From a virus (taxonomy: Duplodnaviria > Caudoviricetes): a stretch of 36,613 bases of DNA. The DNA lies in the IMG/VR virus record IMGVR_UViG_3300050196_000132, positions 1-36,613 of that record; one strand, 5' to 3'. Below the pieces are notes generated by a model. That model saw nothing but the letters and a program-made list of their open reading frames with translations. It did no database searches and had not been told where the DNA came from. Below are positions 6,399 through 32,135 of the stretch, one piece after another. Numbering within the stretch: position 1 is the stretch's first letter; the number at the start of each line of letters is the position of its first letter. The translations under genes were made by a program, and so were the position numbers.

Positions 6399-6712
6399 CC
6401 CCGCTTGAGCAAGCTGTCGAGCATATGGAAGCCGAGTATGCGGCGGCCAGCCCGAAAGCCGACCTGTGGCGCGCGGTTCTTGACGCGTTAGACGACGGCC
6501 AAGCGTGCCGTGAACGGTACGAGATGGTAACCGAAGCGATTGAATATGGGCGGGCCATTAACCAACCTGGCTACGAAGTTATTGACCAAGCCATTCAAGC
6601 GGGAGCGGATTGGGCGTGCGTCGTGGTTCGCCTAGAAAACGCCGGGATTATAGAAAACGGCGCGTCGGCCGATCAAGTCTTGGCGGCCTTGTCGCTTTTC
6701 CTGCCCGACTAA
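6395..6712 (+). CDS. Hypothetical acidic helical protein (105 aa)
   Basis: ATG 6395 follows GGAGAGGA, with an ATGA overlap. Confidence 0.75.
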   Translation: MTPLEQAVEHMEAEYAAASPKADLWRAVLDALDDGQACRERYEMVTEAIEYGRAINQPGYEVIDQAIQAGADWACVVVRLENAGIIENGASADQVLAALSLFLPD

Positions 6713-6715
6713 AAC

Positions 6716-6744
6716 TTGCGTCGGGCAGCGCGGCGGGGTAAGTT
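6716..6744 (+). promoter_or_regulatory. Promoter TTGCGT-17-TAAGTT
   Basis: Intergenic, upstream of the 1015-aa gene, with exact 17-bp spacing. Confidence 0.5.
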
Positions 6745-6772
6745 GCGGGCCTACCGCTAGGAAACGCCCCGT

Positions 6773-9700
6773 ATGACCGCCGCTAACCTCGTCGACCTCG
6801 TAAAAGTTAACGTTTTGTCGGCGGGGTCTGGCTCGTTTGTTTTAGGCTCGGCGGTCTACGGGTTCCGTGGAACCGAAGCCTTGGCCGACGGGTCGCTTTA
6901 CTCATACTCGATCCAAAAGAACGGCGATTATGAAGTGGGTTTCGGGCTTTGGGTCGCGGCGTCGGCCACTTTAACCCGAAGCCCGACCGCCTCGTCAAAT
7001 GGGAATGCGCCGGTCGCTTTCTCTGGCGCCTTCGAGCTATCGTTCGTAGCGCGCGCCGCCGACTTGGTCGGCCGTGGAAGTTCTTCGCCAGTTACAGTTT
7101 CCTACGAAATGAACGACGCTTCGTTCGATATGGCGGGCGACTTTGGAAGCCTAATAACCGTCACGTGTACGCAGGCGCTAACGGCAAACCGAACTCTCGG
7201 CCTGTCGTGTTGGGCCTCTTTGGCCCAAGCGAACAATTTGCCTTTGCGGCAAACTAACGACCTAATTTCGGTCCGCCGGGTCGACGCGGGGCCTTTTTGG
7301 TTGGCTATCGCGTTGGTCAATTGGTCGACCACCGATAATGCTTGGTCTTACGTGCCTATTTGGGGGTTCCACCCGGGTATGGCGTGCGGGCTAACCTCGG
7401 GCTCGGCTCACGTCAGCACCGCCGACACGACGGGGATGGTTATCGGCACGTCCATTGAAGGGCCGTACGTGCCCGCGGGCGCGGTCGTTCAATCAATCGA
7501 CAATAAAACCTCGTTTACTATGGCGTACGCCGACCACCGGCCAGCGCTGGCAGCTGCTACCGGAAGTCAAACGTTATCGTTCGGGGGGTCGCTGGCGAAT
7601 TTTAAATGGACGGGGAACGGCTGGAATACTAACCCCGGCACGCTGGAACAGCTCATTGCGGGGCAAACAAATTACACGCAAACCGGCCGCATGAACGGTG
7701 CGCCATATACGGCCTTTTGGTCGCAATGGAATGTGGGGTCTTTGGAACCTGGCGATTCGACCACAAACAGCATTGTCGCGTATCCAGCCATGTTCCCAAA
7801 TGCGACGATTCTTAATTGGAATTGGCCAAACTATGCGCCCAGCGGCGTTTGGGGGTATGGTTTTGTGAGTTACGGGGATTACGCGGGCGGCCCTACCCCG
7901 CCGCTGGGGTTTTCGTCTACCGGGCCGAAACCAATCCAGCACAAAGACACGGCGTTTTTTGAAGCCCCCTACGCCTACCACGTGCGTTGGCAGTCGGACG
8001 GGGCGGATTGGGATTTGCTAACCGAGTATTGGCTCTATGCCACCGACGCCCCTTCGCGGGGTAACACGACGTTGGTCGAAGTGGCTTGGACGCCCCGCGC
8101 TGCGCATTACGGCACAATAATGTACCCGCAATATGAAGCTAACTTTCTAGGCGTCTGGACTGATAAGTTCGGGGTCGCGTGGAACGTTAACGGCAAGCGC
8201 GGGAAAGAAATCGTGTTTAGCCCGGCCAACGGGTCGGAAATCACCGGGGGTACAATCGACTACCGGGGCGGCGCGGCCTACTTGATTTCCCAAGGGCAGG
8301 TCGACGGAACCGAGTGGAACCACGGCGCGGCGTTTGGGATGGAACCTATTGTGGGTTCGGGGTCGCTACAAATAGACCGCTGGGAACCCGTGCTAGGCGG
8401 CGGCAAGGTGACGTTGACACCGGGCACACCCCCAGCTCCTTCGCTTCTTAGCGGCAACAATCTGAGTTTGACGCTCGGGTACACCGTACCGTCGAACGCC
8501 GTGGGTTGCGTCTACACGACGGACGGGGGCGCTACCTTTTCGGGGTGGGGGGCGACAACTCACACCACGAGGCGCTTGCGGCCGGGTACAACGTATAACG
8601 TGGGCGTCGCGGGCTATAACGACGGCTTGCGTGGCGGGGCCTCCCCAACGGTAAGTATGGCCACCACCTTTGCCGAGGTGGACTTTTCGAGCTCCAGCCT
8701 TTGGGAATCGACCCTAATTAACGACGCGACGAGCCTACAGCACGTAACGGTTACGCCTGCTACCTACACCCTGCCCGGTGGGTCCACTCCTAAAGGGGCT
8801 TTGGTGCAAGACGTTTCAGGCGCTTCGCCAGTCACTTGCCGGCTTAAATGGTCGGCGGTTCTTCCCTCGTTGCTTCCGGGAACGTACGGCCTTTCGGTGT
8901 ACTATAACAATATCGGCGACAACCTAAATTTTGCGTTGTCGATATTTTTCTCGCCCTCTAGGTATCTCGGGTTTAACGTTGAAGACAACGCCCTTGCCTA
9001 TTTTGGCGTGCCCGGGCTTACTGATGGGTTTTACGGCGGCAGCTTCTCTACGTCCGAAGACGTGTTTAAGGGCGTCACTTTTGACGGTTGCCAAGGCGAT
9101 TGGTGGCGGGTCACGGGCCTATGGGATATAATCGACCCTGTGGCGGCCGGTGGCGAGGCCAATATTACCTTGCTTTACCGCGACCCCGTTTCGGGTAAGC
9201 AGTACGAAACGCCCTATACGCCTAATGGTTCGGGGGAACTTGGGTTTTCTCGCTTCGCGTTGCAGGCTGTTGATTTTTCAACGGCCAATTCCGCGTATTA
9301 CGGGGCTAATCTTGCCGCCCCGATAGTTTGGACGCCCGACCATTCGACGGCAACCAGCGTGACGGCTTGGGATGGCGTGGGCCTCGCGACAAAGTACCTA
9401 GAGCAAACCGGAAGCGCGGTGACTACGGGGGTAAATAGCAACGGCAATACCGTTACGGTCGACACGGCGGCCCATGAATACATCGCGTGCTTTGACGTGG
9501 AGCCCTTAGGGCGGGACTTCCTCACCTTGGTTTTTGACAACACCGGTTTTACGCAGAACCTTAGCGTTACCTTTCAACTGTCGACACGACAAGCGACGGC
9601 CGTTTCGACGGGCGGCGGGGGCATGACGTGCGCTCAATGTGGCGTCGTTCTGCTGGCCCCGGGCCGCTATCGCGTATGGGCTCGGGTTCACAAGCCCGCT

Positions 9701-9820
9701 GCCGTTACGACGTTGTTTTTCGCGTTGTACGGTTCCGGCACGAGTTCGACCGTTCACACCGGGGACGCCACAAAAGGGTTTGTCCTGCAACCCAACTCGC
9801 GTATTTGCCAAGTGCTATAG
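6773..9820 (+). CDS. Large modular fibre/spike protein: fibre-anchor N-terminus, GH12-like glycoside hydrolase, FN3, C-terminal beta-sandwich domains
   Basis: N-terminus like phage fibre anchors (VKV...GSGSFVLGSAV.GF...YEVG.G...LTR). GH12-like WNWP..VWGY, DLLTEYW, VEV, FGMEP. FN3 motif LRPGTTYNVGVAGYN. Confidence 0.65.
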   Translation: MTAANLVDLVKVNVLSAGSGSFVLGSAVYGFRGTEALADGSLYSYSIQKNGDYEVGFGLWVAASATLTRSPTASSNGNAPVAFSGAFELSFVARAADLVGRGSSSPVTVSYEMNDASFDMAGDFGSLITVTCTQALTANRTLGLSCWASLAQANNLPLRQTNDLISVRRVDAGPFWLAIALVNWSTTDNAWSYVPIWGFHPGMACGLTSGSAHVSTADTTGMVIGTSIEGPYVPAGAVVQSIDNKTSFTMAYADHRPALAAATGSQTLSFGGSLANFKWTGNGWNTNPGTLEQLIAGQTNYTQTGRMNGAPYTAFWSQWNVGSLEPGDSTTNSIVAYPAMFPNATILNWNWPNYAPSGVWGYGFVSYGDYAGGPTPPLGFSSTGPKPIQHKDTAFFEAPYAYHVRWQSDGADWDLLTEYWLYATDAPSRGNTTLVEVAWTPRAAHYGTIMYPQYEANFLGVWTDKFGVAWNVNGKRGKEIVFSPANGSEITGGTIDYRGGAAYLISQGQVDGTEWNHGAAFGMEPIVGSGSLQIDRWEPVLGGGKVTLTPGTPPAPSLLSGNNLSLTLGYTVPSNAVGCVYTTDGGATFSGWGATTHTTRRLRPGTTYNVGVAGYNDGLRGGASPTVSMATTFAEVDFSSSSLWESTLINDATSLQHVTVTPATYTLPGGSTPKGALVQDVSGASPVTCRLKWSAVLPSLLPGTYGLSVYYNNIGDNLNFALSIFFSPSRYLGFNVEDNALAYFGVPGLTDGFYGGSFSTSEDVFKGVTFDGCQGDWWRVTGLWDIIDPVAAGGEANITLLYRDPVSGKQYETPYTPNGSGELGFSRFALQAVDFSTANSAYYGANLAAPIVWTPDHSTATSVTAWDGVGLATKYLEQTGSAVTTGVNSNGNTVTVDTAAHEYIACFDVEPLGRDFLTLVFDNTGFTQNLSVTFQLSTRQATAVSTGGGGMTCAQCGVVLLAPGRYRVWARVHKPAAVTTLFFALYGSGTSSTVHTGDATKGFVLQPNSRICQVL

Positions 9821-9837
9821 CCCCTCCCCCCAGCGGG

Positions 9838-9866
9838 TTGCCTGCAACGACCCCAGCTGTTAGGCC
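9838..9866 (+). promoter_or_regulatory. Promoter TTGCCT-17-TAGGCC
   Basis: Intergenic, upstream of 9908. Confidence 0.4.
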
Positions 9867-9907
9867 TAAGAGGCTAGTAAATCTCACAAAGCGAAGGGGC
9901 GTACTAA

Positions 9908-10174
9908 ATGGCCGATTCCATAAACGCCAACATTTTGATCCCAGACGCGACTTGGGTTGATCTAACGGCTACGTACGGCACGCTGGCGAACGCTCAGTCG
10001 TGGGTGCAAAATCGAGGCGCTAACCGCGTCGTGCTGGCCTACTCGTCGTCCGGCAGCGCTCCGACGGCAGGCGGCTATGCGCTCGACCCCGGCGGCACGT
10101 TTGGCGGGAACGCCGCGCATATTTGGGCCAGCGCGCCCGCCGGGCCCGCCACCCTATCGGCTGGCATTGTTTAA
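9908..10174 (+). CDS. Small beta-rich virion protein (possible spike base/adaptor)
   Basis: 88 aa with a VQNRG.N.V.L...G..L.PG pattern seen in small phage virion proteins. GAAGGGG RBS. Confidence 0.65.
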   Translation: MADSINANILIPDATWVDLTATYGTLANAQSWVQNRGANRVVLAYSSSGSAPTAGGYALDPGGTFGGNAAHIWASAPAGPATLSAGIV

Positions 10175-10185
10175 GGAGCAACGCA

Positions 10186-11934
10186 ATGCAAGGGACCGAT
10201 GGATACGCGCAGATTTTGGCAGCCGCGGCTTTGGGGCGCGTTGCCCCGGCCGCCAACACTGTCGCAGTTGTTGCCGATAGCTATGGTTGGTACGCGTCAC
10301 CGCAAACTGCAAATTTCTCCATTACCAGCACTACGGCGGGTCAAACGTCAATCACGGTGTCTCAAGCCTCGCAAACGGGCTACCTCGCCGTGGGCGACCG
10401 TATTCTGCTAGTGAACAACGCCGCCAACCCAACTATGAGCGAAACAGTGATTGTTGGCGACACTTGGGGCGGCCCGGGCAGCACCAGTGTACCCCTTACG
10501 TCCGCAGTCCAGAACAGCGGCCTGGTTGTGGGTATAGTCTATGCAGCGCGGTTGCCTTCCGTGAACTCGTGGTTTTCGATTGCGATGGCCCGCCTTGGGC
10601 AACCGCTAGCCGTATTGCCAAACCAGCGGGGTGGCGCGGTGACGGCTCAATGGGCTTCCGGCATTTCGATATGGGGCATATCGGGCGGAACGTCGAGCCA
10701 GCTTAATGGAAGCCTACCATACACAGACGCAGTAGGTGTTACTTCCCTAAATAACTACGAGGCGTTAGCAATCGCCTCGGGGGCTAAGTATATCGTTCGC
10801 TCCATCGGCACCAACGACGTAGCGGCGGGCGTGAGTGCTGCAACTATCATCGCAAACGACGCGTCGTTTCTCTCCGCGTGCACCGCCGCGGGGCGTATCC
10901 CGGTTCTTTTCACAATTCCCCCGCGGGGGTCGCTAACAAGCTCGCAATACGCGGTGCAGCAACAAGTTAACTCTTTTCGTCGTGGCCTTGCGCGAAAAGG
11001 CGTGCTTCTCGCAGACATTAACCGCTGGCTGGCGGACCCCTTGACGGGCCAGTGGCTTGCCGCCCCGTCGACTGGTTTGTGGGGCATTCCCGCCAACGTC
11101 TATTACACCAATGACAGCGTTCATCCCGTGTTTTTCTCGGGCGCGTGGGCGATGGCCTCCGCATTGGTTGACGCCCTGCAGTCTGTGCTCCCCCCCGTTG
11201 CGCATGTTTCGGATATTTATAACCCGACCGGGGCGCAACGCCCCGTCATGGGCACTACGAATGCGGGTAATTTTGACCTTAACTACAGCGCTACTTATGG
11301 GGCCAACCCTCTTGGAAACTTTCTCGGGAATGGGCAATTTTCGGGTACGAGCGGCGGCGGCACGCTAGTTCCGGGTTCGGGCAGTGCTGGAACGGGATGG
11401 AATGTTAACACCCTCCATACCCCAACGAGCGGTAGTTTTACCGTGGCGGGTAACGTCGCTAGGCCTAACACTGTCGGCGACCCCTACGCCCGGGGGTACT
11501 CGCAGACGGTCGCAGTAAGCCAAGGCACCGGCACCGATTACGGGGCATTTGAACTATATAACACCAGTTTCGACGTGGCGAGCGCCGCCGGTCAAGCCCC
11601 CGGCGCGTTTACGTGGCAAATTGGGGAACTCGTGTACGGCGCCGTATGGGTGAATATCGCGTCCCCCGGCGGGGCGGGCACTACGCACGAAACCTACGCC
11701 ACTATGCAAGTTTCTTTTTATAACTCCGCGGGAACGCAGATTGGGGCGACTTCGGCGCTTAAATACATCACCAATTCCTTGCCCGCTTATGACCCCGCCA
11801 TTGGAAGCCCGGCTTTGTTGCTACGGACCCCGCCCTGCCCTATCCCCCCAAATACGGCTAAGGTGCAAATGTACCTTACGGGGGTCGGCGTCGGAACTTT
11901 CACTTTTACAGACGCCGAAATTCGGGCTTGGTGA
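10186..11934 (+). CDS. SGNH/GDSL esterase-domain virion protein with a C-terminal carbohydrate-binding-like domain
   Basis: Block I VADSY, block II GISGGTS, block III IGTND, block V DSVHP. TAAGGAG RBS before ATG 10186. Confidence 0.8.
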   Translation: MQGTDGYAQILAAAALGRVAPAANTVAVVADSYGWYASPQTANFSITSTTAGQTSITVSQASQTGYLAVGDRILLVNNAANPTMSETVIVGDTWGGPGSTSVPLTSAVQNSGLVVGIVYAARLPSVNSWFSIAMARLGQPLAVLPNQRGGAVTAQWASGISIWGISGGTSSQLNGSLPYTDAVGVTSLNNYEALAIASGAKYIVRSIGTNDVAAGVSAATIIANDASFLSACTAAGRIPVLFTIPPRGSLTSSQYAVQQQVNSFRRGLARKGVLLADINRWLADPLTGQWLAAPSTGLWGIPANVYYTNDSVHPVFFSGAWAMASALVDALQSVLPPVAHVSDIYNPTGAQRPVMGTTNAGNFDLNYSATYGANPLGNFLGNGQFSGTSGGGTLVPGSGSAGTGWNVNTLHTPTSGSFTVAGNVARPNTVGDPYARGYSQTVAVSQGTGTDYGAFELYNTSFDVASAAGQAPGAFTWQIGELVYGAVWVNIASPGGAGTTHETYATMQVSFYNSAGTQIGATSALKYITNSLPAYDPAIGSPALLLRTPPCPIPPNTAKVQMYLTGVGVGTFTFTDAEIRAW

Positions 11935-11958: not shown

Positions 11959-13599
11959 TTGGTGCTGGCCGACCCGCAGTTTGATTTTAAGCATCCCGTC
12001 TACACGCCGATAATTAAGGAGCGTATGCGGCGCCTGCAGCGGCTACGCGACGAGCCTGCCCTCGTCGGCCATCTACTGCGGGTCTACAAAGACGCGCCGT
12101 GGCTAATGATTGTCGATTGGGGCGTGACATTCGACCCGCGCAATGTCGAACGCGGTTTGCCTGCGTCTATCCCGTTCCTGCTTTTCCCGAAACAAGTCGA
12201 ATGGTGTCAATGGGCGTTCGAGCGTTGGAAAGCCCAAGAGCCGGGCATAACCGACAAAAGCCGCGACCTCGGCATGTCGTGGTGCGCGATTGGCATGGCG
12301 TGCGCGCTAGCGATCACCCACGACGGGTTTACGGCGGGTTTTGGAAGCCGAAAAGAGGAGTATGTGGATAAGATCGGGTCGCCAAAGGCCTTATTTTGGA
12401 AAGCCCGCAAATTCCTAGAGAACCTGCCGCGCGAATTGCGGGCGGGCCACGACCCCCGCCAGCACGCGCCGCACTTGCGCCTAACGTTTCCGCGTACGGG
12501 TTCGGTCATAACCGGCGAGGCGGGCGACAATATCGGGCGCGGCGATCGCGCTTCAATCTATTTTGTCGACGAGTCGGCTCACCTTGAACGACCTATGCTT
12601 ATTGAAGCCTCGCTGTCGGCCACTACCAACTGCCGAATCGACATCTCCAGCGCGAACGGTATGGGCAACCCGTTTGCCCAAAAGCGCCATAGTTGGCCCG
12701 AACGCCAAATTTTTACGCTGCACTGGCGAGACGACCCGCGTAAAGACGACGTTTGGTACGCCAAGCAAATTGCGCAACTAGACCCCGTAACGGTTGCCCA
12801 AGAAATTGACATTGATTACGCGGCGGCGGTCGAAGGCGTGATTATCCCCAGCGCTTGGGTACAGGCGGCCGTAGACGCGCATATCGCGCTTGGCCTAGAC
12901 GATAGCGGCGAACGGACCGCCGCGTTCGACGTGGCCGACGAAGGGGCCGACAAGAACGCCTTTATCAGCATGAAAGGCATGGTTATTGACGTGGCCGAAG
13001 AATGGTCAGGCAAAAATTCCGACATTTTCCATTCGGTGCAAAAAGTCTTCGGGTTTTGCGACGATATTGCGCTTGACGGCTTTTTGTACGACGCGGACGG
13101 CATGGGCGCGGGCGTGCGGGGGGACGCGCGAGCGATAAACGACAAACGGCGGGCGCTGGCGTTCGAGACGGGGAAGCCCCCTCGCCTAGTCAATCCGTCG
13201 CCCTTTTGGGGCTCGGGCGCAGTCGAGCGGCCCGATAGCCCGTTCATGGCTGGGGCCGACCGAACCAACGGCGATTATTACGCCAACCGCAAGGCGCAAA
13301 ATTGGGGCGTCACCATGCGTCGGTTTCGCGAAACCTATCGCGCGCGGACCGAGCCAGGGTATAAATACGACTCGTCTTTGCTGATTTCCATATCGAGCAA
13401 AATCCCAAGCGTGACCCGAACGAAGCTGCTTTCGGAACTTTCGCAACCCACGTGGGAACGCAATATGGTTGGTAAAATGGTCGTCGACAAAAAGCCCGAC
13501 GGTTCGAAGTCGCCAAACCTCGCAGATGGCGTTATGATGGTTGCCGGCGGCGGTCGCCGCCGTATGCGGATTAGCGACGAGGCGGCAAACAGGCGATGA
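11959..13599 (+). CDS. terL: Terminase large subunit
   Basis: KSRDLGMSW (Walker A-like), YFVDE (Walker B), ISSANG, nuclease FDVADEG.D, YDADGMG and SPNLAD. Confidence 0.93.
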   Translation: MVLADPQFDFKHPVYTPIIKERMRRLQRLRDEPALVGHLLRVYKDAPWLMIVDWGVTFDPRNVERGLPASIPFLLFPKQVEWCQWAFERWKAQEPGITDKSRDLGMSWCAIGMACALAITHDGFTAGFGSRKEEYVDKIGSPKALFWKARKFLENLPRELRAGHDPRQHAPHLRLTFPRTGSVITGEAGDNIGRGDRASIYFVDESAHLERPMLIEASLSATTNCRIDISSANGMGNPFAQKRHSWPERQIFTLHWRDDPRKDDVWYAKQIAQLDPVTVAQEIDIDYAAAVEGVIIPSAWVQAAVDAHIALGLDDSGERTAAFDVADEGADKNAFISMKGMVIDVAEEWSGKNSDIFHSVQKVFGFCDDIALDGFLYDADGMGAGVRGDARAINDKRRALAFETGKPPRLVNPSPFWGSGAVERPDSPFMAGADRTNGDYYANRKAQNWGVTMRRFRETYRARTEPGYKYDSSLLISISSKIPSVTRTKLLSELSQPTWERNMVGKMVVDKKPDGSKSPNLADGVMMVAGGGRRRMRISDEAANRR

Positions 13600-16199
13600 T
13601 TACATATAACGGCTACCGGCTTTCCGAAGGCGCGGCGCGCGTGGCCCGAGGGCTTCCCCCGCTGCGCCCCGTCTCGCCTATGACCATTAGCCCCGGCGCT
13701 GCCACGCTATCCCGTGTTGTGCCGCCCAATCCGTCGCCGATGGCCATGGGCGCCGAAAGCATTTTTGCGCCCTATAAGTTTCCCGAAGGCGTTTACCCGG
13801 CCAGTGCGGGGATGGCGATGGACAGTTGCCCGCCGCTGCCTGCCGCCGTGGGCGCTTGGGCCAGCGGGGCGCTGTTCCACGAGGGCCAAGGGTTCTTTGG
13901 GTTTCCCTACCTGGCCGAACTGATTCAGCGTGTCGAGTATCGCAACGCCTGCCATATTTGGGCCGAACACGCGGTGCGTAAATGGATTCGGTTCGTTAAT
14001 ATTGACGATAAAAAAGCTGACGAACTCGACAAGGCGTTTCGCGCGCTCAAAGTACGGTCGACCTTTTACAATTGGGCCATGCAAGACAACATTTTCGGGC
14101 GCGGGCAGATTTTCTTGGACTTTGGGGACGCGGGCAAACCCGAAGAACTCGAAACGCCTTTGACGCTCGACAAGTCCAAAATTAACATAGACCGCCCAAT
14201 CAAGGCGCTAAAAGTCGTAGAGCCGTTTTGGTGTGCGCCCGGCCCATACGGCGCCAGTAGCCCCCTGTCGCAGGACTTTTACGTCCCTTCTAAATGGTAC
14301 GCTTACGGCACGACGGTTGACGCCTCCCGGCTCCTGACCCTGACCAGCCGACCGGTTCCCGATATGCTCAAACCGGCGTATGCGTTTGGCGGCCAATCGC
14401 TTACCCAAGTGATGAAAGCCTATGTCGACAACTGGTTGCGGACGCGCCAATCGTCTTCGGACTTGCTCGATATGCACAGCCAGCCAGTCCTAAAGACGGA
14501 TATGTCCTCTATTCTCCAAGGCGGCGCGGGTAACGATTTCTACGCCCGGCTCGACATTTTCCAGAACAACCGCAACAACCGAGGGGTTTTGGCGCTGGAT
14601 ATGGCGGACGAAGACTTTTCGTTCGTCACTACGCCGTTGTCCGGAATTTCCGAGTTAGTCGCCCAAGCGCAAGAGCAAGTCGCCAGCGCGGCCCGCCTGC
14701 CGCTGTCGATTTATCTGCAAATCACGCCGACCGGTCTCAACGCCACAAACGACGGCGAGACGCGCAATTTTTATGCCGACGTCCATGCGTTCCAAGAGGC
14801 GCACTTTCGGCCTGGTCTGGAGGTAATCCTTAAAGTCGTGCAGCTTTCCTTGTGGGGGGAAATTGACGCAGATATTGACTTTGACTTTTTGCCGCTTTGG
14901 GAAATGTCGGACAAGGACAAGGCGGACATTCGTAAGGTCGACGCCGACACGGACGTGGCCTACTGCAACGCCGGGATTATCGACCCCGAGGAAGCGCGCG
15001 AACGTCTGCGACTCGACGAGACCGGGCTTTACGCGGGCGTCGACTTGACCGGCCCTGCACCCGAATTGTCAGAGGAGCCAGACGACGACGCCCCGGACGG
15101 TTCGGGCGGGGATAAGCCCGCGATGGACGCCGAGTGGAAAGAGGAAGACCACCCGCGCGCAGACAATGGGCAATTTGGCAACGGCGGCGGCGCGGCATTA
15201 AAAGCCAAGGCCGAAGCGGACCCCGCTAAACCGTTCATGGGCGACCAACCAACCAACCAACCCGCCGCTTCTGCGGCTAAGGAAGGCAGCCAAACGGCGC
15301 CTTTCGTCACGTCGTCGAATAAGCCCACACACCCGCTTGTTACGAAAGAATTGGGCGAAAAGGGCGTCGAACGCGTGCGGGAACTAATTGCGCGAAAAGA
15401 CAGCACGGCGGCCGAAATTTTTGCCGCGCTCAAGCCGCTTGACGAGCTTAACAAGCGTTCGGTCGTCACCATGCGCGAAGAGGATGTTGACACGCCTGAA
15501 AAGGTCGAGAAGTTCATAGCGTCGCGGCAATACGTCACTTTGCAAGGCGACAAAACCGACGCGGCGGGAGCGGTCGGGTCGCTGATCTCTAAAGCCGAAA
15601 GCTATGCGTATGAGAATGGCGGCGTCGGGGTTAGGCGCGAAAAGAAAGCGCGGCTTATTTTGGGGCCGCCCGCCGCCGGTAAATCCACAAGCGCCGAACG
15701 AATCGCGGCCACGCAGGGATACGCGATTGTGGATAGTGACGACGCAAAAAAGGTCGTGCCTGAATTTGACGACGGGTTGAACGCTAACGGGGTTCACGCC
15801 GAGTCGTCAGAACTTCAAAAGGAAGTGTTACGCACGATGTTGAAGCGGGGCGATAACGTTATTTTGCCACTCGTCGGCGGTTCCCCAGGCTCGATTGAAA
15901 AGCGTATAAAGGGCCTGCAGGCGGCGGGCTATGACGTAACGGTCGACGTCTTAGACGTGCACCCAGACGAAGCCGCGCGGCGCATGGCAGGCCGTACGCT
16001 GTCGAAGGGCCGTCACATTGCGACCGGTTACGCGGCTTCCATCGGTTCGTCACCTTTGCAAACGTACGAGACGCTAAAAACCCGCTACCCTAGCCTAGCT
16101 TTTGGCAAGATTAACGGTAACGGGTCGGCGAAAGAAGAAATATATGAAGAGGCCATTAACCACCCGTCGGCTCGGGCGGGGACGCGACTATTTACGTAG
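13596..16199 (+). CDS. Portal protein (DUF1073-type) fused to a C-terminal zeta-toxin-like P-loop kinase domain
   Basis: Follows TerL. Portal motifs FGG.SL, TPTGLNAT.DGE.RNFY, F.PLWEMSDK. After an acidic linker: GPPAAGKS (aa 690-697), VDSDDAK, VHAES, R...GRHI. Confidence 0.88.
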   Translation: MITYNGYRLSEGAARVARGLPPLRPVSPMTISPGAATLSRVVPPNPSPMAMGAESIFAPYKFPEGVYPASAGMAMDSCPPLPAAVGAWASGALFHEGQGFFGFPYLAELIQRVEYRNACHIWAEHAVRKWIRFVNIDDKKADELDKAFRALKVRSTFYNWAMQDNIFGRGQIFLDFGDAGKPEELETPLTLDKSKINIDRPIKALKVVEPFWCAPGPYGASSPLSQDFYVPSKWYAYGTTVDASRLLTLTSRPVPDMLKPAYAFGGQSLTQVMKAYVDNWLRTRQSSSDLLDMHSQPVLKTDMSSILQGGAGNDFYARLDIFQNNRNNRGVLALDMADEDFSFVTTPLSGISELVAQAQEQVASAARLPLSIYLQITPTGLNATNDGETRNFYADVHAFQEAHFRPGLEVILKVVQLSLWGEIDADIDFDFLPLWEMSDKDKADIRKVDADTDVAYCNAGIIDPEEARERLRLDETGLYAGVDLTGPAPELSEEPDDDAPDGSGGDKPAMDAEWKEEDHPRADNGQFGNGGGAALKAKAEADPAKPFMGDQPTNQPAASAAKEGSQTAPFVTSSNKPTHPLVTKELGEKGVERVRELIARKDSTAAEIFAALKPLDELNKRSVVTMREEDVDTPEKVEKFIASRQYVTLQGDKTDAAGAVGSLISKAESYAYENGGVGVRREKKARLILGPPAAGKSTSAERIAATQGYAIVDSDDAKKVVPEFDDGLNANGVHAESSELQKEVLRTMLKRGDNVILPLVGGSPGSIEKRIKGLQAAGYDVTVDVLDVHPDEAARRMAGRTLSKGRHIATGYAASIGSSPLQTYETLKTRYPSLAFGKINGNGSAKEEIYEEAINHPSARAGTRLFT

Positions 16200-16353
16200 C
16201 CGCGGGGACTTCGGGAAGCTGGACGCCTTTGTCAGGATTAGCCATTAGGTAATCAAAATATTCCCAGCTTTTTTCTTCGACTTGGTCATGCCATTCGCGG
16301 CTTCCTACTTCCGGCGCCTTAACGGGCGCCGGTTCGTTCTTTTTATCTACCAT
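16192..16353 (-). CDS. 53-aa acidic protein, candidate antitoxin/immunity protein (not in the ORF track)
   Basis: MVDKKNEPAPVKAPEVGSREWHDQVEEKSWEYFDYLMANPDKGVQLPEVPAAT. It starts 4 nt after the upstream stop, fills the gap exactly and overlaps the portal-zeta 3' end by 8 nt. Confidence 0.65.
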   Translation of the reverse strand: MVDKKNEPAPVKAPEVGSREWHDQVEEKSWEYFDYLMANPDKGVQLPEVPAAT

Positions 16354-16357
16354 GATC

Positions 16358-17086
16358 TTACCTTTGGTTTGCGTCTGGCGCCCAATAGTCGGCGGGGGCG
16401 TCGGCCGCCTCGGCTTTCAACGCGGCCCAATCGCCAGCAAAGCCAACGCTACCATAAAAATTCACGTTGAAATAGTCGCTTTGGCTGTCGGAATTGTCGC
16501 GCTTGTAGGCCATGTAAATCGCGTCGAGTTTGGCGCGCAATTCGTTATATTCCGCGCTGTGCCGCTCGTCCCCCCGCAAAGGCGCGCTGTGGTCGAAGTT
16601 GTCGCCGAATTGCTTGCGCCAAGCGGCCATTTTGACCGACCAGAACTTGAAGCCCTCGGGGACTTGGTCAACCCGAAGGTCGATCGACTGGCCCCCGGCA
16701 AAGCGTTCAATCCAAATCCGCACTTTGAACCCCGCGGGCAGCTTAAGGGCCTTCACGTCGACCCGCATACGCTTGGCGATTTCCTTAACGTCGAGACTGC
16801 GGACGGCCTCAAACTTGGCGCCGCGGAACTCGTTAGCGGGGTCGCAGTAGGCGGGCATGCGGTCGGCCAGCTTTTCGGCTCTAAGGGCTTCGGCCTTTTC
16901 GAAAATCGCGTTTGCCACGTACGCCGCGGCGTGCAAATCCTTAACCAAACCCGCGGCCATAAGGTCGGCGGCGATTTCCACCTTTTTACCGACAACCCGT
17001 TGCGCTTGGGCCTTAGCTTGCACGACCTGTGCGGCTTCTACTCGCTTAGCCTGCTTCCATGCCCCAAAATCAATAATCTGCGCCAT
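16358..17086 (-). CDS. Early protein with an LPD29-like (polyvalent-protein-associated) domain
   Basis: KEIAKRMR...K...FKV.I...FAGGQSID.RV and C-terminal Y.RDNSDSQSDYFNVNFY. It has its own promoter and RBS. Confidence 0.6.
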   Translation of the reverse strand: MAQIIDFGAWKQAKRVEAAQVVQAKAQAQRVVGKKVEIAADLMAAGLVKDLHAAAYVANAIFEKAEALRAEKLADRMPAYCDPANEFRGAKFEAVRSLDVKEIAKRMRVDVKALKLPAGFKVRIWIERFAGGQSIDLRVDQVPEGFKFWSVKMAAWRKQFGDNFDHSAPLRGDERHSAEYNELRAKLDAIYMAYKRDNSDSQSDYFNVNFYGSVGFAGDWAALKAEAADAPADYWAPDANQR

Positions 17087-17111
17087 GATTCGTTCCCTTC
17101 GTTACTGCTTG

Positions 17112-17142
17112 ATCCTAAGAGGTATTGACGCCGTCGTCAATA
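17112..17142 (-). promoter_or_regulatory. Palindrome site C with promoter TTGACG-17-TAGGAT
   Basis: TATTGAC-gccgtc-GTCAATA at 17123-17142. Confidence 0.8.
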
Positions 17143-17178
17143 GCTAAAGCGCAAAGCGGCGTCAGGGGGGGGGGGTAG

Positions 17179-17403
17179 CTATTCAGGCAAAGCGCGAAGG
17201 GCTTTAAGTGTCGGTTTACCTTTGCCGCCGATTTCTTTCCACGCTTGGCAACTGGCAACACCGTTAAACTCGTAGCTTGGCCCTTTGCCCGCCAAGCTGT
17301 CGGCCACGACGGCCATATACTTTTCAAGACGGGCCTCGTCGGCGGTCCATTGGTACCAGCTTAGGGCAACACGCAGGGCGGCAAGATATTTGGCTTTGTT
17401 CAC
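17179..17403 (-). CDS. Hypothetical early protein (74 aa)
   Basis: GTG 17403 is preceded by GAAAGGAACGAAC, the same leader as its neighbours. Confidence 0.7.
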   Translation of the reverse strand: MNKAKYLAALRVALSWYQWTADEARLEKYMAVVADSLAGKGPSYEFNGVASCQAWKEIGGKGKPTLKALRALPE

Positions 17404-17414
17404 GTTCGTTCCTT

Positions 17415-17717
17415 TCAAAGGTTAATTTTGGCAACGACGAACCGAGGGACGGCGGGCCCAAGAACCGCTTTAACCGCTCCGACGGGGTCGCCTTCAAATT
17501 CCCGCAAGTCGACGTCCTTTTCGACCATGCCCCAACCGTCCAGCCGTTCAAGATACCGGCCCCGCTCGTCAAGTGCCAGCCGCACAACCCGGGCCCCATC
17601 GCTAAACTGACCGGCGTCCGCAAAACCCGCAACCAAGCATTGCCACGCGCTACCCGCGCCCACGCTCAAAGCCAACCAACCTTCGTTTTCGAGCAATTCC
17701 GCGATTTGTTCCCGCAT
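17415..17717 (-). CDS. Hypothetical early protein (100 aa)
   Basis: ATG is preceded by GAAGGGAACGAATC and lies downstream of the site D promoter. Confidence 0.75.
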   Translation of the reverse strand: MREQIAELLENEGWLALSVGAGSAWQCLVAGFADAGQFSDGARVVRLALDERGRYLERLDGWGMVEKDVDLREFEGDPVGAVKAVLGPAVPRFVVAKINL

Positions 17718-17742
17718 GATTCGTTCCCTTCGTCACCGCCTA

Positions 17743-17772
17743 ACCCTAGCAGTATTGACGCCGCCGTCAATA
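17743..17772 (-). promoter_or_regulatory. Palindrome site D with promoter TTGACG-16-TAGGGT
   Basis: TATTGAC-gccgcc-GTCAATA at 17753-17772. Confidence 0.78.
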
Positions 17773-17835
17773 GCTAATTGCCCCGCCCGCGCTGCCAGTT
17801 ATCGGGGGCGCCGAGGATCATCCCCTTTGCGCAAA

Positions 17836-18606
17836 TTATTCTCCTTGCATGAACTGTTTGGCCGCATAGACCCCCGCGTTATTGAGGTGGCGTTGCCATG
17901 CCCCTTCGCTCGGCGCCCAACGGAACCCTAGGCCTTTCAGTTTGGCGCGAACGTCGGCGTCGGGCTTCCCGTCAAAGAGAATTTGAACGCGGTTGGCTTC
18001 GACGTTCTGGACTACCTTGCACCCGCTGGGGCCTTCAAGTTCGACGTGCTGGCGTTCGGCCGCTTTGGCCAAGACCTCAAGCCGGGCTTTAAGCCGCCGG
18101 ATTTCCGCCCGGCGGTTGGCCACAACATAATAGCCTCGCTGCATATAGGGCCACTTGGCGATGCTGGCCGCAACGCGGGCCCGCTCGTCTTCGGGGGCAT
18201 TAATCATGGCCGCTGCGCCGCCCTTGCGAATTTGGGCGTTCCATTTGTTTTCTTGGTCGGCCTGAATTTCCAATGCGGCCAACTTGGCTTTGATTTTTTC
18301 GGCCGCGTTCGGGTCGTCGCTGCTAATGCCGCCTTGACCGACGCCCTCGGCGCGCGCGGCCACGGCCTTGGCTTTGTCGTGCAACTCGCACCCTTTGACC
18401 ATAGCGGCATGGGCGCGGGCGATCTGGCGGCGCATTTTCCCTTCGCTATGGTGGCCGACAAGAATCGGCTGGCCAAAGGGAATGCCGCTGGCCTCTTCGC
18501 GCAAATCCCCCTTGCGGAATTGGGCGTCCGCAGCAGCGGCCAGTCGTTCGGCGCGGGCTTCAAGGCGTTCTTTGCGGGCAGCTTGTTTTTGTTCGTAGGC
18601 GTCCAT
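17836..18606 (-). CDS. DUF3560 domain protein
   Basis: IPFGQPILVGHHSE signature, ISSDDP.A, NRVQILFDGKP...LK..GFRWAPS.GAWQR. Confidence 0.88.
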   Translation of the reverse strand: MDAYEQKQAARKERLEARAERLAAAADAQFRKGDLREEASGIPFGQPILVGHHSEGKMRRQIARAHAAMVKGCELHDKAKAVAARAEGVGQGGISSDDPNAAEKIKAKLAALEIQADQENKWNAQIRKGGAAAMINAPEDERARVAASIAKWPYMQRGYYVVANRRAEIRRLKARLEVLAKAAERQHVELEGPSGCKVVQNVEANRVQILFDGKPDADVRAKLKGLGFRWAPSEGAWQRHLNNAGVYAAKQFMQGE

Positions 18607-18695: not shown

Positions 18696-19523
18696 ATGGC
18701 CAACGCAAAAACCCTAACGCCTGTCCGCCCTGCCGTGCCGACGCGCGTCAAATACGAGCGGGCGCTATTAGCGGAAATCGACGCCATGGCGAACAGCCTC
18801 GCATATTGGCTGCGGGCAGCTTACCGAGCGAACGAGCCGGCGACCGTGGCGCTCGCTCAAGACGCTAGCCCCGTCGACGTGCTGCAAACCGCGTTCGACA
18901 CCCTGGCGCGCCGATGGGTTCGCAGATTTGACGACCTCGCCCCTCGACTTGCTGGCCATTTTGCCAACGCGCATAAGACTCGCGTCGACCGCGCTCTTAA
19001 AGCCGACCTTCGCAAATCGGGTTTCACGGTTAAATTCCAGCAATCGCAGGCCATGCGGGACGCTTTTGTCGCCGTGGTCGACGAAAACGTCGGCTTGATA
19101 AAGTCGATTGCCGAACAATACCTAGCGGGCGTGCGAACGGTTTTAATGCAGTCCGTCCAGACGGGCCGCGACCTGGCGACACTTACCGACCATATTGAAA
19201 AGCGGACGGGCGTCACCCGCCGCCGCGCCGCGTTTATCGCCCGTGACCAGAACAACAAAGCGACTGCCGTCATGGTGCGAACCCGCGCGCTTGAACTCGG
19301 CGTCACGCGGGCGCGCTGGCTGCACTCGGCAGGCGGGAAAGAACCGCGCCACGAACACGTCGCGTTTAGCAGCGCGCGGGGCACATTTGATCTTGCGACG
19401 GGCCACGACTTCCACAACGGCGAGGGCGTCGTTTGGCCGGGCACGGCCATAAATTGCCGTTGCGTAGCGTTGCCTATTGTGCCGGGCTTTGACGACGTGG
19501 CACGCGGCCCGCTTGTGGCGTGA
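18696..19523 (+). CDS. Head morphogenesis protein (MuF / SPP1 gp7 family)
   Basis: RAAFIARDQ, W.HS.G...R..H, PG.AINCRC. Confidence 0.9.
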   Translation: MANAKTLTPVRPAVPTRVKYERALLAEIDAMANSLAYWLRAAYRANEPATVALAQDASPVDVLQTAFDTLARRWVRRFDDLAPRLAGHFANAHKTRVDRALKADLRKSGFTVKFQQSQAMRDAFVAVVDENVGLIKSIAEQYLAGVRTVLMQSVQTGRDLATLTDHIEKRTGVTRRRAAFIARDQNNKATAVMVRTRALELGVTRARWLHSAGGKEPRHEHVAFSSARGTFDLATGHDFHNGEGVVWPGTAINCRCVALPIVPGFDDVARGPLVA

Positions 19524-19575: not shown

Positions 19576-20835
19576 GTGTTGCTAATTGCTATGGACCGCG
19601 CTCCTGCCAGCGTTCGCAGTTTTGATGTGGACGGCCGTTTGCACGTGGCGGAAAGCCCTATAAGCAAAGCGAACGTTTGCGAGTATTTCGGCGAAGAAAT
19701 CCCAAGTTGGCAACGGCTCGGGCTAGAGCCTCGGCGGGTCTATAAACTCTTGCGGCACCCTGACGAACTCGCAAAAGCGGTGAAAACCTTTAATAATCTC
19801 CAAATTCTTTCTGACCATATCCCCGTGACGGCTTACGGCGATGAAAGCCATAAGGCCGAAATCACCGTCGGTTCGACCGGAACCGACGCGCGGTTCGATG
19901 GGAAATTCTTGCGGAACTCTCTCGTTATTTGGGCCAAGCCAAGTATTGACGGCGTGGTCAACGGCGAAAAGAAAGAATTGTCGAGCGCCTACCGCTATAA
20001 AGCGGATATGACCCCCGGTACTTTTGAAGGCGTTGACTATGACGGAATTATGCGCGATATTATCGGCAATCACGTTGCGCTAGTCGGAGACGGACGCGCA
20101 GGGTCTGACGTTGCAGTTGGAGACAAAAAGCCTATGTCCTACAATTCAAAACGGGCGCTTATGCTGGCTGGGGGCCTCGGCGGTCTTTTGGCGCCAAAGT
20201 TGGCTCAAGATTCCAAGCCCGTCGACCTAACGCCCGTTTTGAAAAACGTCAACGCCAAGAGCCTTGCGGCCAAGGGCGCAGTCGCCTCTTTGGCCGCTAC
20301 GGTCTTCGGGCTTGTGCAGCCTTTTCTCGCGCAGGACGCCGGTCTGGAAGTGGGGGACGTGGTGCAAGTTATCGAAGCTATCAAAGGTGCGCCCGGCGTG
20401 GCCAGCGACGAAGATGATACGATCGCCCCCGCCGCCGACGAGCCGGGCAAAGTTGCCGAAGACGAGGACGACGAAGACCCCGACGAGGACGGCAATCCTA
20501 AGAAAAAGGACGAGGATAAACCCGCCATGGACACTGCCGCAGTGCTGGCCAAAATGAAGGCTGACGCCCGCGCCCTTCGGCAGGCCGAACGTGAAGTAGC
20601 CCCCGTCGTCGGCACGCTTTCGCTGGCCATGGACAGCGCCACCGACGTTTACGCGGCGGGCCTACGCCAGTTGGGCGTCGACACGGCCAAGCTGCCCGCT
20701 TCGGCCTATGCCGAAACGTTCCGCGCGCTGCGGAACGCCAAGCCCGCCATTGCGCAAGATAGCCGCCCAGCGGCCACCGCTCGCAAGGATTTTGATGCAC
20801 GGTACGCTAACCGCGGCCGTTTGGTTCAGGGGTAA
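19576..20835 (+). CDS. DUF2213 prohead protease/scaffold
   Basis: D.DGRL, ELSSAY, NHVALV..GRAG. Acidic scaffold-like C-terminal half. Confidence 0.88.
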   Translation: MLLIAMDRAPASVRSFDVDGRLHVAESPISKANVCEYFGEEIPSWQRLGLEPRRVYKLLRHPDELAKAVKTFNNLQILSDHIPVTAYGDESHKAEITVGSTGTDARFDGKFLRNSLVIWAKPSIDGVVNGEKKELSSAYRYKADMTPGTFEGVDYDGIMRDIIGNHVALVGDGRAGSDVAVGDKKPMSYNSKRALMLAGGLGGLLAPKLAQDSKPVDLTPVLKNVNAKSLAAKGAVASLAATVFGLVQPFLAQDAGLEVGDVVQVIEAIKGAPGVASDEDDTIAPAADEPGKVAEDEDDEDPDEDGNPKKKDEDKPAMDTAAVLAKMKADARALRQAEREVAPVVGTLSLAMDSATDVYAAGLRQLGVDTAKLPASAYAETFRALRNAKPAIAQDSRPAATARKDFDARYANRGRLVQG

Positions 20836-31505: not shown

Positions 31506-32135
31506 ATGTTCAATTCGGGCGCCTATGTTGGCCAAGCGAGCCTTGCGGACGTCGGCAGCGAGTTTGCCCGCCTGTCCTTTTTGGTACGCGCAATCCAAGG
31601 GGAACAAGCGACCATGACGCTCGTCCAGATTAAGGCCGTGCGGGCCATCGGCGGCGCCTATGAAGTGGACGTGCAGCCGATGGTCCATCAAATCGACGGG
31701 GCGGGCAATGCCGTGCCGCACGGAGTAGTTAACGGCCTGCCCATTTGGCGGCTGCAGGGTGGCGACTCGGCGGTTATTGTCAAACCCGTCGTCGGCGACA
31801 TTGGGCTGGCCCTTTTTGCGCAGTCGGATATTTCCGGCGTTAAGCGCGCCAAAAAACCGACGACGCCGGGCAGCGCGCGCAAATTCGATTGGGCCGACGG
31901 GGTCTATATGGGCGGGGTGCTTAACGCCGCGCCATCGCAAAAAATTGTCATGGACGAAACGGGCATTACGATGACGCCCGCCAGCGGCACGCGCGTAAAA
32001 ATTGACGGCAAACTAGAGGTTGCGGGCGAAGTCGTAGCGACCGGCGAAGGCACGTTTAACAGCCACACAGTCGGCAACCACAAGCACGGCGGCGTCACCG
32101 CCGGAACGGGCATTAGCGGCTTGCCGACGGGCTAG
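31506..32135 (+). CDS. Baseplate central spike (Gp138-type)
   Basis: VDVQP, P.VGD.GL..F...DIS, R.FD..DG, C-terminal metal-binding HKH. Confidence 0.85.
   Translation: MFNSGAYVGQASLADVGSEFARLSFLVRAIQGEQATMTLVQIKAVRAIGGAYEVDVQPMVHQIDGAGNAVPHGVVNGLPIWRLQGGDSAVIVKPVVGDIGLALFAQSDISGVKRAKKPTTPGSARKFDWADGVYMGGVLNAAPSQKIVMDETGITMTPASGTRVKIDGKLEVAGEVVATGEGTFNSHTVGNHKHGGVTAGTGISGLPTG

Follow-up and report, generated by a model that had tools for sequence, protein, structure and literature searches.

A zeta-fold kinase fused to a phage portal protein, with a predicted head-protease site and a likely inhibitor gene

Why does a phage portal gene run on, beyond its portal domain, into an enzyme? This question is raised by an ORF in the stretch of viral DNA analysed here (36,613 nucleotides; hereafter the window). 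The ORF (nt 13596–16199, plus strand) is open throughout its 867 aa and joins a Phage_portal_3 domain, a linker predicted to be disordered and a zeta-fold P-loop kinase; a first-pass annotation of the same DNA had likewise read it as a portal with a zeta-like kinase cargo. The portal domain (aa 111–453, nt 13926–14954, plus strand; PF06381, E 1e-76, 258 bits against a Pfam cut-off of 33.8) is homologous to the portal gp19 of E217 and Pa193, and the window portal matches PDB 8fvh and 9b41 at E 1e-36. The genes for MuF, the protease and the capsid lie downstream, and the portal is within the head module. The acidic linker (aa 490–575, nt 15063–15320, plus strand; pLDDT <50 at 490–515, 527–546 and 548–575) leads into the 289-aa kinase (aa 579–867, nt 15330–16196, plus strand), assigned from Pfam, fold matches and conserved residues. 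The portal–kinase fusion is real and not an assembly artefact, because 28 of 41 matches, the query counted, share the portal_3 plus zeta architecture (27 further clusters at 90% identity), and because contigs from two other runs, unmarked as possible source, cross nt 15100 with identical sequence (X4, record 15060–15210; X5, record 14672–15171). An assembly error was thereby ruled out, and the stop or frameshift near this position that the first-pass annotation had considered was found neither in the window ORF nor in the contigs of the two runs. In one related locus (L037), the kinase and the portal lie in different frames, with the break at a G run.

The modelled fold of the kinase is that of the zeta clade. 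The best fold match was zeta (1gvn; Z 16.2, rmsd 2.9, 198 residues aligned; Foldseek E 1e-7), followed by AvrRxo1 (4z8q; Z 15.0, rmsd 3.7, 224 aligned, 14% identity). Among natural sequences, too, zeta matched best (E 2.5e-6), and Pfam Zeta_toxin covered aa 681–829 (E 2e-14, 53.7 bits, cut-off 22.3), in agreement with the zeta-like identity proposed at first. The plus strand encodes a Walker A motif, GPPAAGKS (K696; nt 15663–15686), the catalytic D715 (nt 15738–15740) in DSDDAK (aa 713–718) and VHxES (nt 15792–15806). GPPAAGKS and DSDDAK had been read correctly at first, but the 'R..GRH' of that reading is actually R800-x4-G805-R806-H807. The P-loop Lys46 and catalytic Asp67 of zeta are kept as K696 and D715, and K696, D715, K718, E736 and R800 were present in 204/204 family domains. 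Judged from these residues, the active site looks intact.

The linker holds a predicted cut site for freeing this cargo, A509-M510-D511 (nt 15120–15128, plus strand), in which D511 is conserved in 28/28 kinase portals. It is followed by the HPR tag (W-x-E-x-D-H-P-R-x3-G-Q-F; AEWKEEDHPRADNGQFG, nt 15129–15179, plus strand), the predicted new N-terminus of the cargo. Both had been placed correctly before, and a cut after D511 would release 356 aa, the fragment length then estimated. The tag was detected in 28/28 kinase portals, 19/25 portals with other cargo and 0/92 short portals; the stand-alone kinases P0049 and P0050 also bear it. A second predicted head-protease site, A74-M75-D76 (nt 13815–13823, plus strand), lies in the N-terminal part of the portal; of 28 homologs, at least 90% keep A74 and D76. 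In five head proteins, A[MQ]D was observed 11 times against 1.05 expected (0/2000 shuffles), compared with 6 against 3.6 expected in 28 other proteins. The looser A-x-D was not enriched (21 observed, 19.3 expected), and only 8/28 kinase portals scored an exact AMD or AQD at the position closest to the HPR tag. The likely cutter is the head maturation protease/scaffold (DUF2213; nt 19576–20835, plus strand; PHROG 2229, E 3e-117), with six A[MQ]D of its own; the short MuF (275 aa, nt 18696–19523, plus strand), which has no C-terminal cargo, contains one AQD, and the major capsid protein (nt 21601–22632, plus strand) contains AQD24-26 and AMD35-37. AMD62-64 is present in the capsid protein of JG024, and the model of the related E217 capsid begins at residue 66, just past AMD. 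From this enrichment, the E217 capsid analogy and the predicted disorder of the linker, the head protease probably cuts the portal at A-M-D511, as first proposed. The portals of E217 and Pa193 are described as directing the C-terminus into the head, residues 529–765 having no density (PMC10329688, PMC11456595). Not all portals of this family would release a cargo in this way, since the PB1-type portal lacks A[MQ]D ahead of its own cargo; the Pam3 portal paper is silent on cleavage in its available text (PMC9942802).

The cargo slot after A-x-D/HPR is swappable, which a survey of homologous portals, suggested in the first-pass annotation, made evident. Long tails of at least seven kinds were present on 28 of the 120 closest portals, these portals carrying no tail or one of NUDIX, PBECR3, ART, LPD3, RelA-like or ParB-like type. 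In a quick tree of 84 rows, the kinase occurred on at least three separate portal branches, and the sister of the window portal carries a RelA-like tail. The kinase family comprises 1,218 clusters at 50% identity (E <1e-30), carried by Mu-type and HK97-type portals, MuF and large virion-module proteins, and it occurs in the same chains as Acb1, SAM lyase, InPase, ART and NUDIX. Cargoes in the set of portals, MuF and large virion proteins include ART-PolyVal, PBECR3, LPD3, InPase and ddrB-ParB. A single PADLOC match of the kinase (E 0.03) was disregarded, and P0042 used as a query against viral contigs gave no match.

The first-pass annotation overlooked a 53-codon gene convergent with the fusion ORF (nt 16192–16353, minus strand), together with its overprinted counterparts in relatives. 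This gene, preceded by an AAGG ribosome-binding-like site, is the last of a minus-strand cassette between the portal and MuF, the other members of which encode 242, 70, 100 and 256 aa (nt 16358–18606, minus strand; the last is a DUF3560 protein). The 242-aa gene ends 5 nt ahead of the partner ATG, and the cassette is probably co-transcribed with the partner; a promoter scan found 1 promoter against 1.0 expected. We modelled the kinase–partner complex from a custom five-row alignment and obtained a score of 0.87, the best of three controls reaching 0.01; the mark for such scores was attained by 116/157 solved complexes and by 2/215 mismatched pairs. The runs agreed in at least 87% of contacts, with a partner pLDDT of at least 72, and the predicted contacts cover the kinase positions matching zeta E100, T118 and T128. 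The 53-aa protein is thus predicted to bind the acceptor cleft and is likely an inhibitor of the kinase, although the score may reflect predictor memory, since solved epsilon/zeta and AvrRxo1 complexes exist.

Similar small genes accompany the kinase elsewhere. Partner-like ORFs were present at 8/8 close portal–kinase loci, and the partner region was free of indels in a relative that is about 86% similar across nt 15273–16699. When a partner HMM was applied to 181 loci (33,404 frames), its 12 best matches all fell in kinase loci, the first other match having E 0.85. In most relatives examined, the small gene is nested inside the kinase gene rather than beside it as in the window: an overprinted +1-frame ORF was found in 25/35 representative kinase loci versus 57/1813 control windows. 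The +1-frame conservation signal was small (0.79 versus 0.76 and 0.73), and the overprinted peptides of distant loci had no detectable homology to the convergent partners by HMM (best E 7). Relatives start the overprinted copy at AAT, where the window has AAC; the AAT/AAC bias at this start gave no signal (p 0.86). When left out of the partner HMM, the window copy is not recovered (hhalign probability 0.3%), unlike 9/10 of the other copies, so its family tie rests on position and model. The partner had no match in viral contigs (tblastn), Pfam, PHROG or PADLOC, and no co-oriented immunity gene was found past the stop codon in the window. One locus, L001, has two partner copies with a 29-nt inverted match of 76% between them, which fits gene duplication. 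Inverted repeats as the source of the window partner were considered and do not account for it.

Since a predicted cut site precedes the kinase and a predicted inhibitor gene accompanies it, the enzyme is likely injected by the virus and active only briefly. Built into the head through its linker, the kinase would be present in about 12 copies per prohead, as set by the portal dodecamer; the DUF2213 protease would cut after AMD511 to yield the HPR-tagged 356-aa enzyme, which would then leave with the DNA, the inhibitor remaining behind. In the first minutes of infection, it may phosphorylate a nucleotide-type acceptor other than UDP-GlcNAc, such as NAD, another nucleotide cofactor or a defence signal, and this pulse may help host takeover or counter-defence. 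Expressed from the minus-strand cassette or, in relatives, from the overprinted copy translated with the late genes, the inhibitor would end the pulse and shield the cell producing new portals. This mechanism, a virion-delivered kinase with a cognate inhibitor that serves takeover or counter-defence, is the reading that we favour, with its chances about evenly balanced.

A dedicated inhibitor points to toxicity, and a killing role therefore fits as well as counter-defence. With the same loading and the same inhibitor, the kinase could strike an essential metabolite as a fail-deadly entry toxin: if the incoming DNA is destroyed or silenced, no inhibitor is made and the cell is arrested, and the phage would gain by eliminating immune hosts or shutting out competitors. 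The second-best fold match, AvrRxo1, is an NAD kinase; Mycobacterium tuberculosis PezT is described as still inhibiting growth without the UDP-GlcNAc motif (PMC6362051, PMC10532202), and transient zeta expression as blocking SPP1 phage amplification. However, each particle would deliver only about 12 molecules, and the chain partners Acb1, SAM lyase, NUDIX and InPase are counter-defence or nucleotide-clearing enzymes, leaving this role a tentative second choice. Slightly less doubtful is a broader proposal, that apparently lytic viruses widely carry an undescribed toxin–inhibitor system, comprising a zeta-clade kinase, delivered in the virion and acting on a new nucleotide substrate, together with an inhibitor, encoded in the +1 frame or on the opposite strand, that plugs the acceptor cleft, as a fail-deadly answer to restriction or CRISPR; if true, cells destroying incoming DNA would be left with an unchecked kinase.

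A canonical zeta activity, directed at UDP-GlcNAc or related UDP-sugars and weakening the cell wall or the surface polysaccharide through their phosphorylation, was part of the initial interpretation. It agrees with the first rank of zeta among fold and natural sequence matches and with the retained catalytic Asp and Lys, and gonococcal zeta is described as handling UDP-sugars with other residues. However, the zeta GTxR motif (Thr118, Arg120) is missing: the window reads L759-V760-G761-G762, with P-L-V-G (nt 15867–15878, plus strand) at the position of zeta's E-G-T-G. Across the 204 family domains, Pro takes the place of E116 in 199; at the T118 position, 185 have Val and 12 have Thr, and the five most frequent residues at R120 do not include Arg. 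The zeta UDP contacts Glu100 and Thr128 are not kept, the alignment placing K743 and R770 there, both in variable columns. A relative with the same VHxE motif is gp115, in the head module of the haloarchaeal virus HVTV-1, whose host has no peptidoglycan. An epsilon/PezA-type antitoxin gene is absent upstream, where a 546-aa ORF abuts the portal start. PezT with Val for Thr at the GTxR position is reported as non-toxic (PMC3062530), and MuF-fused zeta kinases were read as cell-wall toxins by Iyer et al. 2017 (PMC5512222). Because of the L-V-G-G reading and the Val at Thr118, UDP-GlcNAc phosphorylation and a cell-wall block are unsupported; cell-wall poisoning is unlikely, and we regard the canonical activity as improbable.

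Equally improbable is a cargo that is not ejected, acting late in the producing cell or remaining in the head, with the fusion merely tying its synthesis to the late genes. Ejection is something that we infer, PB1-type cargo has no cut site and stand-alone kinases exist, but a late cytoplasmic enzyme would need neither repeated attachment to unrelated virion proteins nor a cut site and tag conserved only ahead of cargo. Least probable is a Pnk-like RNA-end-healing kinase repairing tRNA cut by host anticodon nucleases. Pnk folds (Z 13.3 and 11.6), a phage Pnk (weakly, E 7e-5) and PHROG 505 (E 1e-4) match the kinase, but zeta-clade folds score higher and cover N-terminal helices missing from Pnk, ligase and phosphatase are absent among the 28 window ORFs scanned, and an inhibitor would be superfluous for an enzyme of repair.

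The portal kinase with its putative inhibitor is best read as a variant of the MuF and polyvalent phage-delivered effectors, the 53-codon partner being new here. Polyvalent proteins likewise have effector domains fused to head proteins; Iyer et al. 2017 (PMC5512222) name PBECR, 2H and InPase as fused to portals, and a zeta-like kinase on MuF. The available passages of that paper name no portal–zeta fusion, although its supplement may list one, nor do they describe a cognate inhibitor or an overlapping gene (in the main text, 'immunity protein' and 'overlap' occur 0 times). MuF polymorphic toxins share the head-protein carrier, the variable C-terminal enzyme and proposed delivery with DNA, and they have a small downstream candidate immunity ORF to which the predicted partner here may correspond (Jamet et al. 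2017, PMC5576092; 'zeta', 0 times in that paper). In contrast, the carrier here is the portal, the window MuF being short and tail-less, and the partner gene is either convergent with the kinase gene or overprinted on it. This kinase family also has MuF carriers. MuF toxins are described as confined to temperate phages (PMC5576092), whereas no tyrosine integrase or resolvase (PF00589, PF00239) was found in 5/5 records here (two at least 90% complete, the window record 71%), and these viruses may be lytic. Epsilon/zeta and PezAT (PDB 1gvn, 2p5t) share the fold, the P-loop Lys, the catalytic Asp and a small protein partner, but the present kinase lacks GTxR and is part of a virion protein, and its partner is predicted to lie over the acceptor cleft, whereas epsilon and PezA are described as blocking the ATP site (PMC3062530). 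AvrRxo1, likened by fold, and M. tuberculosis PezT (PMC6362051) are also zeta-clade kinases with a protein partner and no UDP-GlcNAc motif, but neither is phage virion cargo. HVTV-1 gp115 is a related kinase on a different carrier, and the role of haloviral zeta proteins is given as unknown (PMC4284463). In open-licence papers and preprints, we found nothing on a portal–zeta fusion, an HPR tag, an A[MQ]D site or a nested inhibitor; in their available text, Kronborg 2026 concerns the T7 portal itself, not cargo, and the EVADES preprint and PMC13728456 do not mention zeta or portal-fused cargo.

The pair of a 289-aa kinase and a 53-aa protein, with an interface predicted between them, makes testable what has long been predicted: that phage enzymes fused to head proteins are effectors for delivery and have cognate immunity proteins. 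The locus also points to an unannotated class of genes nested within large virion genes, and to a zeta-clade kinase whose substrate is new. The portals of Bcep1 (portal–NUDIX) and of PB1 and E217 (gp19) belong to the same family and have C-terminal tails, the cargo of Bcep1 and PB1 being different, and the cut site with its HPR tag might serve as a rule by which capsid cargo is found, or loaded, in phages of the PB1/Bcep1 type.

The portal reading frame (13596–16199, plus strand) was open over 867 aa without interruption in the window, and Pfam matched both Phage_portal_3 (aa 111–453) and Zeta_toxin (aa 681–829) above cut-off, confirming the proposal of the first-pass annotation that the portal runs on into a kinase domain. 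The motif coordinates listed there were correct except for the last motif, which reads R-x4-GRH, and at nt 15100, where a stop or frameshift was to be looked for, contigs of two runs that were not flagged as a possible source of the record read through unchanged. The same two domains were present in 28 of the 41 proteins matching aa 500–867 (query included; identity 45–84%). The ORF lies in a head–tail module of myophage type and is followed by MuF, head protease, capsid, sheath, tape measure and baseplate genes, on a virus contig of 36.6 kb (completeness 71%).

The structure model of aa 579–867 (mean pLDDT 97) was most similar to zeta (1gvn; Z 16.2, rmsd 2.9, 198 residues aligned), followed by AvrRxo1 (Z 15.0, rmsd 3.7, 224 aligned), PezT (Z 14.5) and Pnk (Z 13.3); Foldseek concurred, in agreement with the zeta-type fold expected at first reading. 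Residues were mapped by counting along a profile alignment with zeta, and zeta K46 and D67, here K696 and D715, were kept in all 204 domains (202 proteins). The possibility that the kinase phosphorylates UDP-GlcNAc was not supported by the motif test. Using the UDP-GlcNAc contact residues of zeta named in passages of Mutschler 2011 (PMC3062530), we found Val in 185 and Thr in 12 of the 204 domains at the T118 column, Pro in 199 at the E116 column, mostly G/A/D/H/S at the R120 column, and variable residues at the E100 and T128 columns. In the same passages PezT is non-toxic once Thr is replaced by Val at the T118 site, and GTxR, which is not kept here, is described in part of PMC6362051 as necessary to bind UDP-GlcNAc. 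By these motifs, the portal-kinase falls outside the UDP-GlcNAc kinases of the zeta/PezT type. Invariants peculiar to the family (H734, E736, S737, R644 and R806) point to another acceptor, probably one that bears phosphate.

Cleavage after A509-M510-D511 (AMD511) is likely, given the enrichment of A[MQ]D, the parallel with the PB1/E217 capsid, and the invariance and predicted disorder of D511. In the portal, MuF, protease/scaffold, decoration and capsid proteins, A[MQ]D was seen 11 times vs 1.05 expected (0/2000 shuffles), and in the 28 other window proteins 6 times vs 3.6 expected; plain A-x-D was not enriched in the same head-protein test. The capsid protein of JG024, with a related PB1 head, carries AMD at 62–64, and the virion capsid model of E217 begins at residue 66 according to a section of PMC10329688, the residue offset being confirmed by chain 8frs. 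Sections of PMC10329688 and PMC11456595 describe a portal C-terminus projecting into the head in E217 and Pa193, with density missing for 529–765. In the Bcep1 portal, AQD stands immediately ahead of a NUDIX domain; no A[MQ]D site was found ahead of the cargo of the JG024 portal. D511 was invariant in 28/28 kinase portals and lies within a stretch of predicted disorder.

A survey of homologous portals revealed several kinds of tail at one slot, as anticipated by the idea of swapped cargo after the HPR motif. Among the closest 120 of 1,067 portals, 92 end near 500–545 aa and 28 have long tails: zeta-fold kinase (3), NUDIX (6), PBECR3 (6), ART-PolyVal (1), LPD3 (2, one below cut-off), RelA/SpoT-like (2, one by a Pfam match below cut-off and the other by likeness to the first), presumably ParB-like (5, from a DGNHR motif, with no Pfam match) and unknown (3). 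A quick tree of 84 rows was built from the portal part (kinase portals, 28; other cargo, 25; short portals, every third of the 92). On it the kinase label needed four changes, at least three of them forced by well-supported branches, and the sister of the window's portal was a RelA-like carrier. The HPR tag directly after the predicted cleavage site was present in 28/28 kinase portals, 19/25 other-cargo portals (the six without it are all NUDIX) and 0/92 short portals, and was also found at the head of stand-alone kinases. Since the cargo is already joined to the portal, a role in ejection or as the mark of a mobile cassette is more likely than capsid targeting. Four portal tails (P0025, P0026, L087 and L092) carry a second tag, W-I-T-x-x-x-G, after an A-x-D site, replacing or preceding the HPR tag, and protein P0178 has the AMD-HPR unit twice in tandem. 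At the related locus L037, a run of seven G lies just after the HPR tag (~7590–7625), with portal and kinase in different frames, reflecting either a sequencing error or slippage yielding fewer cargo copies.

The kinase family comprises 1,218 clusters at E <1e-30, mostly viral in Atlas. Among 49 scanned from the best 150, the carriers were portal_3 (4), HK97-type portal (2) and MuF (5), and the companion domains ART (5), Acb1, NUDIX and GNAT (1 each); in another scan, of 30 proteins, the kinase occurred together with Mu portal and Acb1, and with SAM lyase and InPase. At many viral loci the kinase forms the end of a 1,100-aa protein, ahead of a PHROG 684 virion protein, and the head module of halovirus HVTV-1 contains a relative. 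Proteins P0029 and P0278 combine portal, Acb1 and zeta-fold kinase in one chain (P0278 also ART), on two different portal families.

The first-pass annotation missed a partner gene of 53 codons, seen in the follow-up analysis (16192–16353, minus strand). Its 3′ end shares 8 nt with the end of the portal ORF, its start comes 5 nt downstream of the stop of the preceding gene, and an AAGG site lies upstream; in a relative ~86% alike, the gene is free of indels. At four related loci (L001, L037, L040 and L045) comparable convergent ORFs terminate at the kinase stop. An HMM built from those four picked up, without prompting, ORFs on the plus strand that overprint the 3′ end of the kinase at L048 (7060–7230; E 7e-6) and L044 (4062–4232; E 5e-4). 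At L032 an RHH-like gene precedes a copy located at a distance of 2.2 kb. A partner-like ORF occurred in 8/8 distinct close portal-kinase loci; at L110, a more distant locus, the convergent ORF is 35 aa long and does not match the partner. Leaving out one locus at a time recovered 9/10 copies (E 5e-15 to 0.04), the window's own partner not being recovered, and the 12 best matches among 33,404 frames of 181 loci were all in kinase loci. L001, L044, L045 and L048 show two facing copies at the kinase stop, overprinted plus-strand vs minus-strand, as if caught mid-relocation. Ahead of the partner gene, the minus strand of L037, L040, L045, L032 and L086 has a conserved 50-aa ORF, which we take to be RHH-like (no Pfam match) and which is missing at the corresponding place in the window.

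In the wider family, we counted +1-frame ORFs with ATG, a ribosome-binding-like site, at least 40 codons and a start in one shared 25-codon stretch. These were found in 25/35 representatives (106 loci clustered at 70%; counts inflated by shared ancestry) vs 57/1,813 control windows. When the start rules were relaxed (no control run), six of the ten misses showed a 47–66-aa +1 frame; one other is truncated, and three are portal phages with a minus-strand gene, the window included. Altogether 54/61 +1 ORFs are fully nested in the main ORF. For 13 disjoint pairs, conservation in the first part was highest in the main frame (0.87 vs 0.81 for +1); in the second part the +1 frame led (0.79, ahead of 0.76 for the main and 0.73 for the third frame). 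This is the direction expected, but the signal is weak; an AAT/AAC test in the wider family was null. HVTV-1 gp115 (L017) has an unannotated acidic +1-frame ORF of 39 codons right after the zeta-like domain (~6644–6763, plus strand), a candidate nested inhibitor. RelA/SpoT-like-tailed portals have convergent 61/63-aa minus-strand genes (L030, 8592–8774; L065, just after 4306), mutually alike and unlike the kinase partner, and no such gene was found at the NUDIX, PBECR and InPase-type carriers compared, which suggests that the toxic cargoes have cargo-specific inhibitors.

The predicted complex of the kinase with the window's partner scored 0.87 vs 0.01 for the best of three controls (input alignments of 64 and 5 rows); the score mark, reached by 116/157 solved and 2/215 mismatched pairs, is only a rough guide for these alignments, and the existence of solved zeta and AvrRxo1 complexes is a caveat. 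At least 87% of contacts agreed between runs, with partner pLDDT of at least 72, and the model supports predicted kinase–partner binding. Its named contacts include H734, K743, V760 and R770, which match zeta's acceptor contacts; P-loop residues are absent from them, although touch there is not thereby disproved. Whereas epsilon and PezA obstruct the ATP site (passages of PMC3062530), the predicted partner contacts are on the acceptor side.

Taken as a whole, a delivered kinase serving host takeover or counter-defence has about an even chance, and is favoured because of the domains accompanying the kinase. Some 12 kinases would be built into each head, freed by the cut after AMD511 and injected without inhibitor. 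Their brief action, on a nucleotide-type acceptor that is not UDP-GlcNAc, would end once the inhibitor, the predicted product of the partner gene, is made; the inhibitor would also shield the cell producing new portals. A fail-deadly toxin is a distinctly poorer prospect. We consider a canonical cell-wall toxin improbable, since zeta's UDP-GlcNAc contacts are not kept, and an enzyme that is not ejected equally so; an RNA-healing kinase is the least probable. A lysogen weapon is less likely, because a search of 5 records turned up neither a tyrosine integrase nor a resolvase in any of them. In its working, the kinase with its partner would resemble a delivered MuF-type effector with immunity. 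Parts of Iyer 2017 (PMC5512222) describe zeta-like kinases on MuF and portal fusions of other enzymes, and parts of Jamet 2017 (PMC5576092) describe MuF toxins of temperate phages, each followed by a small ORF. Neither a portal–zeta fusion nor a nested inhibitor came up in the open-licence literature searched.

Elsewhere in the window, the stretch from the small terminase gene to the ORF that precedes the portal (6773–11934, plus strand) encodes a GDSL-like esterase and a 1015-aa protein that matches no family. Two long overlapping frames on the minus strand (32132–33283, 383 aa; 32149–33105, 318 aa) both match PHROG DNA methyltransferases.
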